Positions 3,590-55,084 of a DNA stretch of 64,000 nt are shown here, piece after piece. The first letter of the stretch is position 1. Every line of letters starts with the position of its first letter. The notes below the pieces were generated by a model. That model did no database searches. It worked only from the letters and a program-made list of their open reading frames with translations, and was not told the DNA's origin. This DNA comes from Octopus vulgaris. Lineage: Eukaryota. The DNA lies in the NCBI GenBank assembly GCA_951406725.2, contig OX597822.1, positions 75,516,001-75,580,000 of the forward strand. Direction: 5' to 3'. Position numbers and translations under genes: made by a program.

Positions 3590-3856
3590 AATTTGTTTCA
3601 GTCATTTGACTGCGGCCATTCTGGAGCACCGCATTTAATCGAACAAATCAACCCTCAGGATTTATTCTTTGTAAAGCTAGTGCTTATTCTATCGGTCTCT
3701 CTTGCCGAACCACTTAGTTACGGGGAAGTAAACACACCAACATCGGTTGCCAAGCGATGGTGGGGGACAAGCAGAGGTTCACAAATACTTACATACATAC
3801 GTATCTATATACATGCACACATAGATACATAGATAATACATACATACATACATACA

Positions 3857-3892
<36 letters not shown>

Positions 3893-4160
3893 TATCGTGT
3901 TATCTACTATAGCCTCGGGCCGATCAAATCCTTGTGAGTGGATTTGGTAGACGGAAACTGAAAGAAGCCCGTCGTAAATCTCTCACTCTCTCTATATATA
4001 TGTGTGCGTGTATATGTTTGTGTGTCTGTGTTTGTCCCCTCAACATCATTTGACAACCAACGCTAGTATGTTTACGCCGCCGTAACTTTGCGTTTCGGCA
4101 AAAGAGACCGATCAAATAAGTACTGGGATTACAAAGAATAAATCCTGAAACAAGAAAAAG
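3590..4160. mobile_element. Two partial SINE B copies in opposite orientation separated by (TACA)n
   Basis: 3590-3790 is the minus-strand 3' half; 3897-4160 is a plus-strand 5'-truncated copy. Confidence 0.7.
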
Positions 4161-4265
4161 AATATATAATGTACTGATCCGTGATAGAAAATTAAACAAA
4201 AAAAGGTACTCCATCTGATGAGAGATAAATAATATTTATTTAAAGGTCACAATACATGTATTAAA

Positions 4266-4318
4266 ACACTACTAATAGTTTCGCAGGTTGAGAAAACTCA
4301 AGCATATTCCTCAGATGC
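4266..4318 (-). ncRNA. Type I hammerhead ribozyme, degenerate stem II base
   Basis: Minus strand reads GCAU-CUGAGGA-AUAUGCUUGAGuuuuCUCAACCUGC-GAAA-CuauuaG-UA-GUGU; core intact, stem I relies on wobble pairs, stem II only partly paired. Confidence 0.55.
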
Positions 4319-4369
4319 AAACTGCATATCATAACGAACTAAAATTCTTTAGCTTGTTTTATGTGGTTT

Positions 4370-4423
4370 GCGCCTGAAGAATATGTTAGAGTGTTTCAAA
4401 ACATATGAAACTATTAGTAGCGC
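4370..4423 (+). ncRNA. Type I (minimal) hammerhead ribozyme, intact core
   Basis: GCGC-CUGAAGA-AUAUGUU(loop)AACAUAU-GAAA-CuauuaG-UA-GCGC; 7-bp stem II, 4-bp stem I, predicted cleavage after A4419 (GUA). Confidence 0.8.
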
Positions 4424-4451
4424 TTTAATACATGTACTGTGACCTTTAAAT

Positions 4452-4545
<94 letters not shown>

Positions 4546-4570
4546 GATAATATATAGCTAGATAGATATA

Positions 4571-4732
4571 CGACCGGCTTCTTTCAGTTTCTGTCTAGCA
4601 AATCCACTCTCAAGGCTTTGGTCGGCCCGAAGCTATAGTAGAAGACACTTGCCCAAGGTGCCACTCAGTGGGACTGAACCCAGAACTATGTGGTTGGTAA
4701 GCAAGCCACTTACCACACACCCACTCCTGCGT
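4571..4732 (-). mobile_element. SINE B 5' half (tRNA-like head)
   Basis: Reverse complement GCAGGAGTGGGTGTGTGGTAAGTGGCTTGCTTACCAACCACATAGTTCTGGGTTCAGTCCC with A/B-box-like motifs. Confidence 0.8.
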
Positions 4733-5520: not shown

Positions 5521-6667
5521 TGGACTCACAAAATGTGTTAACGATGATGATGAGAAGAAAAAAGCTTGCCAGGCATACCCCATTACTACTATAAATACTT
5601 GAGAATACTTGAGGCAGATGGAATCAAACACCACGACATGAAGGAAAAGACAAAAGGAGAGTATCTGCGGTGAGTGAGAAAAATATTGGCTTCAAATCTG
5701 AAAGCTAGAAGCATAATTTCGGTAATAAACTCGTGCGCAGTCGCAGTAGTTTGGTTTGGTGCTAGAATCCTGAATCAGACAGAGGAAGAGCTAAAGGAAA
5801 TGGATAGGGAGTCAAGAAAGCTCCTAACGATGCATGGAGCGCGTCACCCACGTGCAGACACTGATAGCTTATGCATGAAGAGAGCAAATGGAGGAAGGGT
5901 ACTGATAAGCGTGGAAGACTGCGCGCGTATGGAATTCGAGAGTTTAATGAGATACCTGGCCCAAAGTAAGGAAACCTTGCTAGTGAAAGTTAGGAACGAG
6001 GGAGTATTGAGGGCAAAGAAAAAAAAGGAAAAACAAAGGTAGAAATGCAGAAAGGACATGAAGAAGAATTACGCAAGAAGGGACCACACAATCAGTTCTA
6101 TGTAGTCACAACAGAAGTTGCTGGAAAAATAGGATTGGCTGATGAAAGGAACCCCCCCCCCCCCAAAAAAAAAAAAGAAACCGAGAGCACTATACTGGCA
6201 GTGAAGGACCAAGCTTTGGCCTCGAACTGGAGGATCAACCCGAGGAATGAGTGAGTGACTTTGCTGTGCCGCATCTGCAACAGAGTGGATGAAACCATTT
6301 CCCATATCACGAAGGAATGCCCTAGACTTGCTCAAAACTACAACAAGTAGTAGCAACACGATCAGGTAACTGTTCAAAAAGTGGGGTCTAGAGAGAGACA
6401 AAATTTGGTATGAGCACAAATCGCAGAGAGTAGCAAAGTCTGAATCTAGCAAAATCCTCTGAGACTTCCCAATCCAAATAGAACAAGGAGCTGGAGTATA
6501 ACAGACCGGACTTATAGTGGTGGACAAGGGGCACCACATATGCTATATAGTTGCATGCCGCTTTGACCCACGAATAGTCAAGAAAGAAGGCGAAAAGACA
6601 GTTAGATATTAAGCTTCGTATATTTTAGCCCAATTTCACTTTGATAGCATGCACTGCTCTCTCACTC
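5521..6667 (+). mobile_element. Decayed R4/Dong-like non-LTR retrotransposon (RT C-terminus, zinc knuckle, restriction-like endonuclease)
   Basis: YKYL.ILE, INSCAVAVVWFG, HPRADTDSLCMKRANGGRVLISVEDC, CRIC..VDETISHITKECP, KIL*DFPIQ, RPDL-like motifs with stops and frameshifts; bounded by TAT/TAA repeats. Confidence 0.75.
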
Positions 6668-6851
6668 AATAATAATAATAATAATAATGGCACTCTTCTT
6701 TTAATTTTGGTTCTATATCTTTTGGAGGAGTTACCTCAATCCTTTATATATTAACCAAAATGAAGTAGATTAACAAAATTATTGTTTGAACCTGTTGAAG
6801 ATGTCGAAATATCGTTCGCTAGATGACAATGGCACTCTTCTTTTACTACTA

Positions 6852-35210: not shown

Positions 35211-35277
<67 letters not shown>

Positions 35278-35397
35278 ACAATCAAGGAACGGCCATAATA
35301 GGCCATTCACCCACTAGAAATAACAGCCAAAAGCTTTAACCGCAAAATAACGTTAATTCCGTAAACCAGGAGAAAATTGAAAAACATTTACCCTGTA

Positions 35398-35504
35398 ATT
35401 TCTTAGACGATGCACCGTTTCATCTTCTGTTTAATGGAAAACTAACCTGATTAAATTAAATCAAGCCAATCTACCATAGGCCCTTAGAATCATCAGTAAG
35501 AAAT
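35398..35504 (-). ncRNA. Type I hammerhead ribozyme, monomer 1
   Basis: Reverse complement of the motif at 37018-37124. Confidence 0.75.
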
Positions 35505-35891
35505 AGCCAAGCCGGAACAGATATTTTTCACGAGGCATTCTCGTTGCTACCTCGTCAATATCTGACCTAAAATTTTCAAATCGTCGCACTCGCGCCAAAT
35601 TTATCGGCAGCAAATAAATATAAGCCGCCGATTCCATTACGGAATTAACCAGAAAATTCATAATTAATCAATATAGGGTGGCAAAAAAAAAATTTTGTAG
35701 AATTCTTTTGCCACCAGCGGCCTAGTGGGAAAAAATTAAATAATCATAAACTATTTTTAAGTTCAACATCAACAATCAAGGAACGGCCATAATAGGCCAT
35801 TCACCCACTAGAAATAACAGCCAAAAGCTTTAACCGCAAAATAACGTTAATTCCGTAAACCAGGAGAAAATTGAAAAACATTTACCCTGTA

Positions 35892-35998
35892 ATTTCTTAG
35901 ACGATGCACCGTTTCATCTTCTGTTTAATGGAAAACTAACCTGATTAAATTAAATCAAGCCAATCTACCATAGGCCCTTAGAATCATCAGTAAGAAAT
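35892..35998 (-). ncRNA. Type I hammerhead ribozyme, monomer 2
   Basis: Reverse complement of the motif at 37018-37124. Confidence 0.75.
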
Positions 35999-36382
35999 AG
36001 CCAAGCCGGAACAGATATTTTTCACGAGGCATTCTCGTTGCTACCTCGTCAATATCTGACCTAAAATTTTCAAATCGTCGCACTCGCGCCAAATTTATCG
36101 GCAGCAAATAAATATAAGCCGCCGATTCCATTACGGAATTAACCAGAAAATTCATAATTAATCAATATAGGGTGGCAAAAAAAATTTTGTAGAATTCTTT
36201 TGCCACCAGCGGCCTAGTGGGAAAAAATTAAATAGTCATAAACTATTTTTAAGTTCAACATCAACAATCAAGGAACGGCCATAATAGGCCATTCACCCAC
36301 TAGAAATAACAGCCAAAAGCTTTAACCGCAAAATAACGTCAATTCCGTAAACCAGGAGAAAATTGAAAACATTTACCCTGTA

Positions 36383-36489
36383 ATTTCTTAGACGATGCAC
36401 CGTTTCATCTTCTGTTTAATGGAAAACTAACCTGATTAAATTAAATCAAGCCAATCTACCATAGGCCCTTAGAATCATCAGTAAGAAAT
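36383..36489 (-). ncRNA. Type I hammerhead ribozyme, monomer 3
   Basis: Reverse complement of the motif at 37018-37124. Confidence 0.75.
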
Positions 36490-37017
36490 AGCCAAGCCGA
36501 ACAGATATTTTTCACGAGGCATTCTCGTTGCTACCTCGTCAATATCTGATCTAAAATTTTCAAATCGTCGCACTCGCGCCAAATTTATCGGCAGCAAATA
36601 AATATAAGCCGCCGATTCCATTAGGAATTAACCAGAAAATTCATAATTAATCAATATAGGGTGGCAAAAAAAAATTTTGTAGAATTCTTTTTGCCACCAG
36701 CGGCCTAGTGGGAAAAAATTAAATAGTCATAAACTATTTTTAAGAATTCTACAAAATTTTTTTTTGCCACCCTATATTGATTAATTAAATAATTAAATAG
36801 TCATAAACTATTTTTAAGAATTCTACAAAATTTTTTTTTGCCACCCTATATTGATTAATTATGAATTTTCTGGTTAATTCCGTAATGGAATCGGCGGCTT
36901 ATATTTATTTGCTGCCGATAAATTTGGCGCGAGTGCGACGATTTGAAAATTTTAGGTCAGATATTGACGAGGTAGCAACGAGAATGCCTCGTGAAAAATA
37001 TCTGTTCCGGCTTGGCT

Positions 37018-37124
37018 ATTTCTTACTGATGATTCTAAGGGCCTATGGTAGATTGGCTTGATTTAATTTAATCAGGTTAGTTTTCCATTAAACAGAAGAT
37101 GAAACGGTGCATCGTCTAAGAAAT
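37018..37124 (+). ncRNA. Type I hammerhead ribozyme with long stem II, inverted monomer
   Basis: AUUUCUUA-CUGAUGA-(68-nt stem II region)-GAAA-CGGUGCAUCG-UC-UAAGAAAU; perfect 8-bp stem I, predicted cleavage after C37116 (GUC). Confidence 0.75.
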
Positions 37125-37350
37125 TACAGGGTAAATGTTTTTCAATTTTCTCCTGGTTTACGGAATTAACGTTATTTTGCGGTTAAAGCTTTTGGCTGTT
37201 ATTTCTAGTGGGTGAATGGCCTATTATGGCCGTTCCTTGATTGTTGATGTTGAACTTAAAAATAGTTTATGACTATTTAATTTTTTCCCACTAGGCCGCT
37301 GGTGGCAAAAGAATTCTACAAAATTTTTTTTTGCCACCCTATATTGATTA

Positions 37351-37411
<61 letters not shown>

Positions 37412-53527: not shown

Positions 53528-54355
53528 GCCCGTACACATCCATAGACAGTTGCCTATTTCTTCCGTGGCTTCAAATTTCGTGCCAAATATACCTTCTTTA
53601 TAACAAGGAAGAATCGTTGAAAAAATGTTCGGTATTGTTTGTTGTCATGCTGCTATCTTGTTTGCTTCATAATGTTACTATTTTGCTTACAGGTTATCTT
53701 CCATTGGCTGATGTGCTTTTTTTTTTCAATTCTTGCTCTGTTGTAATTTGTTAGGTAGAATTTTCCCTGTGTCGGCATTTCGATATTATCTTAAAGCATC
53801 TGCTGGTTGGATATCAAGTTATATTTCCCCAGCATTACATAACTGCAGTTGCTTTATTTCGTTTATGTCAGCGTACGATGTTCGTTCACTGCCACAACTT
53901 TCTGGATATTCCTGTGTTCTCCATTTCTCCTTCGAGAAAGTTGACTCTTGTTAAAGAAATGGCATTTAACGCCAGCTTTGCATATACTGTTTACTCTATA
54001 ATTCTTTCGTAACCACTTGAAATATTATATTTGCTTTGCAGAGATTATTGTCAATGAATTCGGAATTTGCTTTCTGTTATGCTACCGATTACTTTTGTAC
54101 AGTTATTATTGACTTTTGCATTGTTTATATTAAACAACATAAAGCAAATGACTAATATATGCAGATGTAATTTGCTAGAAAGTGCTTCTTGATTAGGGCT
54201 ACAGAATACTGCATTCAAAACTTCCTCTTTTGTTTAAGTACAAGTTAAATATATATAAAATTTTAATAATCGAACAAACCTGAACACTGCTGTTTTAAAT
54301 ATTATCTCCCACATACAGGTATGCATATGCATGAGTATGTGCATATATATGTATA

Positions 54356-54389
<34 letters not shown>

Positions 54390-54392
54390 CAT

Positions 54393-54467
<75 letters not shown>

Positions 54468-54475
54468 TTGAGTTC

Positions 54476-54539
54476 GTTGCACTGAAGAGCATAGAATGCA
54501 TATTGTGCATTGATTGCGAAATCACAGGTGATATGTAAC
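54476..54539 (+). ncRNA. Type I hammerhead ribozyme, intact core
   Basis: GUUGCA-CUGAAGA-GCAuagAAUGCAuauugUGCAUUgauUGC-GAAA-UCACagGUGA-UA-UGUAAC; predicted cleavage after A54533 (AUA). Confidence 0.85.
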
Positions 54540-54660
54540 TAAATTCTGTTTTTAAATGACTTGCTTTGAAGTTTTGCATTCGGTACAATTTGTTTATTTT
54601 AGTAGTTTTGATTGCAAGAGTCCCTCCTAGCGTGCGGTACCTATGAATAATAGTACCCTC

Positions 54661-54730
<70 letters not shown>

Positions 54731-54848
54731 GGTACTATTATTCATAGGTACCGCACGCTAGGAGGGACTCTTGCAATCAAAACTACTAAAATAAACAAAT
54801 TGTACCGAATGCAAAACTTCAAAGCAAGTAATTTAAAAACAGAATTTA

Positions 54849-54912
54849 GTTACATATCACCTGTGATTTCGCAATCAATGCAGAATATGCATTCTATGCT
54901 CTTCAGTGCAAC
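54849..54912 (-). ncRNA. Type I hammerhead ribozyme, intact core (mirror copy)
   Basis: Reverse complement of 54476-54539 with one change in the stem II loop. Confidence 0.85.
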
Positions 54913-54920
54913 GAACTCAA

Positions 54921-54989
<69 letters not shown>

Positions 54990-55036
54990 ATATGTATATG
55001 TGTGTGTGTGTGTGTATGTACATATACACACAAATC

Positions 55037-55084
<48 letters not shown>

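Follow-up and report, generated by a model that had tools for sequence, protein, structure and literature searches.

Two hammerhead copies in a palindrome of Octopus vulgaris, probably a head-to-head pair of pseudo-LTR ends from an old Hydra-clade Penelope-like element

A palindrome in the genome of Octopus vulgaris (contig OX597822.1 of GCA_951406725.2) carries a hammerhead ribozyme (HHR) motif on each strand, and the question raised by this locus is what the two motifs are and whether either is still at work. The palindrome lies within a stretch of 64,000 nucleotides (forward-strand positions 75,516,001 to 75,580,000), which was analysed as a whole and is called the window below. A first-pass annotation of these letters regarded the motifs as two structurally divergent ribozymes whose core nucleotides had been kept while the arms around them diverged. 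The features now recognised (Table 1) are very probably those of a head-to-head pair of ~295 bp, made up of the 5′-truncated pseudo-LTR (pLTR) ends of an old, broken Penelope-like element (PLE) of the Hydra clade, which likely arrived in one insertion and decayed later, with the same hammerhead in each arm.

Table 1. Features of the palindrome and its right flank (window positions)
Feature	Position	Strand	Description
Left arm	4162..4344	-	5′-truncated 3′ end of an element placed by motifs in the Hydra clade (pLTR plus tail)
Tail, ~70 nt	4162..4232	-	Left arm only; in longer copies, the same sequence lies immediately upstream of the ORF
Head-to-head junction	4343..4346		Self-complementary AATT; arms begin at reference positions ~199 and ~193
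Right arm	4345..4456	+	5′-truncated pLTR; stops at the short 3′ end of the family, without tail
Type I HHR	4370-4423	+	Intact core; helices I-III kept; distal stem II decayed
Decayed type I HHR	4266-4318	-	Core retained, as are helices I and III; stem II broken in its proximal part
(CA)n(TA)n microsatellite	4457..4541		Right flank

The palindrome and its two hammerhead copies

Both the palindrome and the two annotated cores were recovered: the inverted repeat arms 4233-4295 and 4394-4456 pair over 63 nt without a gap at 87% complementarity, and the fold of 4160-4460 (−112.7 kcal/mol, z = −14.5) was equalled by none of 100 shuffles. However, the boundaries first given, 4233..4456, were too narrow, as the minus arm continues to 4162, where its homology to the copies L057, L064, L067 and L068 also extends, and the whole insertion thus covers 4162-4456. 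Against the 3′ end of copy L031, the left arm is 88% identical over reference positions 199-379 and the right arm 87% identical over positions 193-310. A short TA run lies to the left (about 4153-4161), no target-site duplication is discernible at the palindrome flanks, and the flanking microsatellite is the likely insertion target. In the four DNA runs (organisms A-D), contigs contain the family and its 3′ end, and those of all four lose the match at 4162 and continue into TA repeats; no piece among those listed from these runs spans the junction, so this palindrome is attested solely by the assembly. Very high-copy interspersed repeats, presumably SINE-like, flank the palindrome (window 3655-4148 and 4550-4730); they include an inverted pair (3655-3766 and 4037-4148), and the contig depth at window 4082-4135 is in the millions.

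The plus-strand motif is intact, as annotated, with a helix I of 4 bp, CUGAAGA at 4374, a helix II of 7 bp, GAAA at 4407 and a palindromic helix III, and its predicted cut falls after A4419, between 4419 and 4420. A strict HHR descriptor matched this motif alone in the window and nothing in 30 shuffled windows. The homology claimed for the minus-strand motif was also borne out, as it possesses a CUGAGGA core and a GAAACUAUUAGUA segment identical to that of the plus arm, with a predicted cut between 4270 and 4269. In both arms and in the family majority described below, the CUGANGA/GAAA core and the U16.1-H17 cleavage site are present. Helix I closes the motif with 4 bp in both arms (type I topology), including two G-U pairs in the minus arm. 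Helix II reaches the 7-8 bp expected of a minimal HHR in the plus arm and the family majority (7 bp), whereas the minus arm falls short, having lost three of the seven proximal pairs of stem II, with four remaining and the 10.1-11.1 pair broken. The HHR fold has an energy of −10.6 kcal/mol in the majority, −4.4 kcal/mol in the plus arm and +4.5 kcal/mol in the minus arm, whose copy is predicted to be dead. The 10.1-11.1 pair of this hammerhead is A-U rather than G-C and no extra base follows A9, both of which are departures from tendencies of the consensus, not from invariants. Helix III can pair with itself as 4 + 4 bp around a U-U mismatch (−4.9 kcal/mol), i.e., it is palindromic and would permit a dimer.

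The first-pass annotation had assigned a different stem II hairpin to each arm. However, in the majority sequence of 77 family copies the two hairpins, AUAUGUU/AACAUAU and UUGAG/CUCAA, belong to a single stem II, of which they form the proximal and distal parts, with an overlap. The two arms depart from this majority at 7 of 102 sites (6.9%) and 11 of 105 sites (10.5%), have no derived change in common and disagree with one another at 21 columns, which indicates the independent decay of one sequence rather than two structurally divergent ribozymes. General searches returned no hammerhead, either among the four Rfam matches to 4180-4460 at E ≤ 10 or among the 150 listed of 399 matches to the whole window. 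When single arms were folded, neither HHR was more stable than its shuffles (z between 0.13 and −0.68), so minimum free energy is no test for HHRs here. A CUGAUGA at 4216, considered as a third HHR, was rejected, being the reverse strand of the tail with a private C-to-T change (place 4218).

A broken Hydra-clade family and its relatives

Copies were sought in the octopus genome itself (2.8 Gb, 227 contigs) with the plus arm as the query. There were 1,006 first-look candidates, and the 40 that were scored yielded 46 matches; in all, 103 alignments represent 77 distinct copies. The family is old, as the first-pass annotation had supposed, and also broken: a tree of 42 copies is star-like, with a median tip of 0.076 and firm support for only 3 of 39 inner branches, and stops interrupt 52 of the 59 non-self protein matches (56-80% identity), the other seven being free of a stop within the match. 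In longer copies, the homology continues upstream of the HHR for up to 2.2 kb (L031/L032, 82%), and these upstream parts translate, in broken pieces, to reverse transcriptase (RT) and endonuclease motifs. The PLE ORF that the annotation had proposed to look for is thus present in the family, although in the window itself tblastn with a related 717-aa ORF found no Hydra-type ORF. The pieces include RWK (L073, L077, L080, L086, L087, L088 and L090), DKT as a modified DKG (L031, L032, L074, L081 and L082), a CxCX5C linker (L031, L033, L034 and L035) and CxxC with CxH in place of CCHH (L031 and L032). A single ORF, with the RT followed by a GIY-YIG endonuclease at the C terminus, emerges from these motifs and from colinear tblastn matches to the 717-aa ORF of a sister family, pieced across copies. 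Pfam assigned no family to four ORF pieces (two weak matches fell below the cut-off) or to the intact sister ORF, and a PDB search with the ORF gave one weak, unrelated match only, so the RT/GIY-YIG identity rests on motifs, among them those listed in PMC8557442. Seven homologues are 37-46% identical, and the motifs are present in the two that were checked (P0001 and P0005).

RWK, DKT, CxCX5C, CxxC/CxH and (TA)n targets are given as features of the Hydra clade (PMC8557442, section 11), and TA or TA/CA repeats lie at the end of most of the 77 copies, matching the (TA)n insertion of that clade. By its motifs, the parent element is a Hydra-clade PLE. Membership of Neptune/Nematis was rejected, given the CxCX5C linker and the absence of CCHH. 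The length of the element, for which less than 3 kb is expected in this clade, is provisionally estimated from pieces at ~2.7 kb, no complete copy having been seen at any one locus, and its ORF starts beyond the tail, at some distance downstream of the HHR. L032 repeats the architecture of the locus with a 2.3-kb direct arm; a partial direct upstream pLTR occurs in L080 and L082, and L032 and L057 are among the loci with inverted copies. Minimal type I HHRs in a PLE pseudo-LTR, left as an inverted pLTR pair, had been proposed for the locus, and both the family architecture and the ORF motifs agree with this.

Two further families are related to this one. The first (L081, L082, L085, L087 and L122-L146) yielded 1,305 first-look candidates, of which 25 copies were aligned; it is old and Hydra-type, its tail is common to both families, and its stem II is much longer with a U-U basal pair. 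The second is young, with intact 717-aa ORFs (L058:4263-6413, plus strand, and also L059, L060 and L061) and with tandem and inverted copies 98-99% alike; its pLTRs (L058, about 6610-6680) carry a predicted HHR-like fold, with a CCGAAGA core, i.e., C at position 4, in both. Separately, L035:1-2077 (oriented minus), near a family copy, is a tandem array with units of ~104-108 nt at ~90% identity.

Hammerheads of the Hydra clade, a Hydra family from an octopus and inverted pairs of HHRs have all been published, and the pair at this locus is a common product of truncation. The clade is exemplified by Hydra-1_Obim of Octopus bimaculoides and by Penelope-1_HM, -13_HM and -18_HMa of Hydra, and the elements described in PMC8557442 share with the present family the C-terminal endonuclease, RWK, DKT, CxCX5C, CxxC/CxH, (TA)n and a hammerhead within the 3′ repeat. 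The cleavage base and helix III are those given there for Penelope-1_HM and -18_HMa, and Penelope-13_HM is listed with a 5′-truncated inverted copy and with an HHR on each strand (PMC8557442, File S2). However, the HHR of Hydra-1_Obim as given in that source differs from the present one in helices I, II and III, and the 13-nt segment common to both arms has no match in the supplement text of PMC8557442, so the octopus copies belong to another family. The family also differs from the Hydra-clade PLEs compared there in being old and broken and in its tail of ~70 nt, where that source gives 30-40 bp for PLEs. The metazoan PLE minimal HHRs described in PMC4209133 resemble the octopus motif in a helix I of 4 bp, a helix II of 7 bp and a palindromic helix III, whereas the latter has A-U in place of G10.1-C11.1, no base after A9 and a helix III of 3 bp instead of none; many Hydra HHRs listed in PMC8557442 likewise depart from G10.1-C11.1 or from the extra base after A9. 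Dual minimal HHRs ~100-700 bp apart on opposite strands, as well as many solo motifs from truncated PLEs, are reported in PMC4209133. The literature searched, which left out Repbase, Dfam and most subscription papers, holds no description of the family.

Two fixed 3′ ends and the origin of the head-to-head pair

The 77 copies have two discrete 3′ ends, 41 being long and 31 short (5 are other), and these ends nearly always run into TA or CA/TA repeats. The short end follows a AAATAAATA run, while the long end lies ~70 nt further on. The extra stretch is also found directly upstream of the ORF (L073, L076, L080 and L090) and thus corresponds to the tail of PLEs. Among 13 pairs found, L031 (a 72% arm, 6.4 kb away, of another family) and L082 (of the sister family) were dropped; the remaining 11 are all head to head, none being tail to tail, and span from 260 nt to 5.3 kb. 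Nine of them join one long to one short end, one has a partial tail, and one has two short ends; i.e., as a rule each pair carries one tail.

This rule bears on whether the two arms came together by chance. Two independent insertions of solo pLTRs, adjacent and in opposite orientation, would agree with the lack of any derived change common to the arms and with their unequal divergence from the majority, in a family that is abundant and targets microsatellites. However, the arms abut at a self-complementary junction of only 4 nt with no microsatellite between them, their truncation points are no more than 6 nt apart, the rule of one long and one short end and the head-to-head orientation recur across the pairs, and the pairs of L004, L006, L024 and L098 likewise share only 0-1 derived changes. 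Independent insertion is therefore very improbable, and a single insertion whose arms decayed separately remains the preferred reading.

A single insertion of this kind would have begun when the RT/GIY-YIG protein of the element nicked a TA-rich microsatellite. Reverse transcription may then have started at two sites ~70 nt apart, giving the long and the short end, and both cDNAs would have halted early, ~30 nt past the HHR, before a head-to-head join linked them, perhaps through fold-back priming at the AATT. Two start sites of reverse transcription were shown in vitro for the anole PLE Poseidon_Ac, whose tail is the sequence between them (PMC11167929), and self-priming has been proposed (PMC3846280). 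As described in PMC11167929, Poseidon_Ac (PAc, Anolis) resembles the octopus family in its two fixed 3′ ends, in a tail that is the start of the element body, in AT-rich targets and in an HHR within the pLTR, and differs in belonging to the Penelope/Poseidon clade and in an HHR that overlaps the ORF start.

Palindromes of similar span exist in the family (296 nt at L001, 313 nt at L006, 287 nt at L019 and 260 nt at L024), as might be expected if the palindrome itself were a non-autonomous mobile unit, like a MITE or a retrozyme, and spread in that form. Such a unit is extremely unlikely here, given that the junction points differ among the short palindromes, that the spans form a continuum up to 5.3 kb with ORF pieces inside, and that a target-site duplication is lacking. 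Direct tandem copies with a 3′ end, by which a non-LTR retrozyme would be recognised, are found neither in L001-L121 nor in the window. The non-LTR retrozymes described in bioRxiv 10.64898/2026.07.22.740005 are comparable in being short non-coding units related to PLE pLTRs with type I HHRs; however, they form head-to-tail arrays with HHRs on one strand, in contrast to the single inverted pair at this locus.

Two other structures of the window are recorded here. A young palindrome at 54332-55046 holds two type I HHRs that are nearly identical, at 54476-54539 (+) and 54849-54912 (−); they lie tail to tail about a (TA)n centre, in contrast to the family at 4162-4456, whose pairs are head to head. 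It has 1,672 candidates, the best matches being mostly 97-99% identical and several lying ~490 nt apart on one strand, and no Hydra ORF was found in 20 loci. The structure at 35274-37352, which is PLE-pLTR-like and young (99% identical), consists of three tandem units of ~490 nt and one inverted unit with (TA)n flanks, and the descriptors used detected no canonical HHR core in it.

Hammerhead function in the source element and at the locus

Comparison of the family majority with that of the old sister family revealed double compensatory changes at stem II pairs 3 (A-U to G-C) and 6 (U-A to C-G) and at stem I pair 3 (C-G to U-A), while the core is unchanged except at N7; the unpaired centre of helix III has also changed. 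The family majority has the hammerhead core, and the covariation expected of its stems holds between the two majorities. Within the family, however, covariation is weak and due to CpG sites: substitutions in stem II occur at the rate of the flanks (9.3%) and mostly break pairs, and all helices together show 137 single breaks against 20 double-compensated cells, the latter mostly at CpG sites.

Core conservation was measured in 47 copies chosen by queries other than the HHR, and only copies with an alignment spanning the HHR were used (1 of 19 protein-search loci, 18 of 20 5′-ORF loci, most of which stop before the HHR, and 2 of 30 3′-UTR loci were excluded). The 11 core sites are substituted at 4.9%, against 8.6% at 334 non-CpG control sites (Mann-Whitney P = 0.016; P = 0.005-0.008 in base- and trinucleotide-matched permutations). 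The compensatory stem changes relative to the sister family and the roughly halved substitution rate of the core suggest that the HHR worked in the source element. In the active parent, it likely cleaved between tandem pLTRs, as a dimer via the palindromic helix III or with the help of a protein; PLE minimal HHRs are reported to cleave weakly and as dimers only (PMC4209133), and cleavage has also been described with the element protein (PMC11167929).

The same deficit could also be read as selection after insertion, i.e., the plus HHR, or the cores throughout the family, may have been kept for a use by the host such as cutting transcripts. In addition to the deficit among copies, this would fit the arm-versus-arm differences of nine pairs (4 of 98 in the core against 188 of 1568 elsewhere, P = 0.014) and the short stretches of 65-82 nt identical to the left arm (0 differences) in contigs from organisms A, B and C. 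However, five of the nine pairs had been chosen with the HHR as the query, and the four unbiased pairs give 3 of 44 in the core against 80 of 820 elsewhere (P = 0.79). Singleton alleles are not depleted in the core (1.09 per site against 0.86); only recurrent alleles are, which fits selection in the source elements rather than after insertion, although the numbers are small. Core and stems together are intact in only 16 of the 47 unbiased copies, and at the locus itself the hairpin sequesters the HHR. Retention for host use is accordingly judged very doubtful, as is the broader proposal that the host keeps hundreds of fossil HHRs, including that at 4370-4423, as RNA cutters, with inverted pairs serving as hairpin on/off switches, to which we give hardly any credence.

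With 5-9% neutral change per site, both cores would be intact by chance with a probability of 0.13-0.32, so this locus alone shows no selection, and the annotated contrast between a kept core and diverged arms falls within neutral decay. A cleavage assay with a dimeric construct had been suggested; however, the two HHRs lie on opposite strands and never share an RNA, and a dimer in cis is therefore impossible at the locus. The stems of the plus-arm HHR have a pairing probability of 0.00 in the read-through RNA and of 0.01-0.02 in the isolated arm. With the copies on opposite strands, the HHR stems unpaired in a read-through RNA that would fold into a ~110-bp hairpin, and a minus copy without stem II, the locus is predicted to be silent, and is most likely an inert fossil.

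The family adds to the Hydra clade a hammerhead family that is apparently not yet listed. Its compensatory stems and spared core provide comparative support that PLE hammerheads were functional, and its rule of one arm with a tail (9 of 11 pairs) fits the two starts of reverse transcription observed in vitro in another clade. The same genome also contains the young sister family, whose 717-aa ORFs are intact and which offers a test case for this two-start model.
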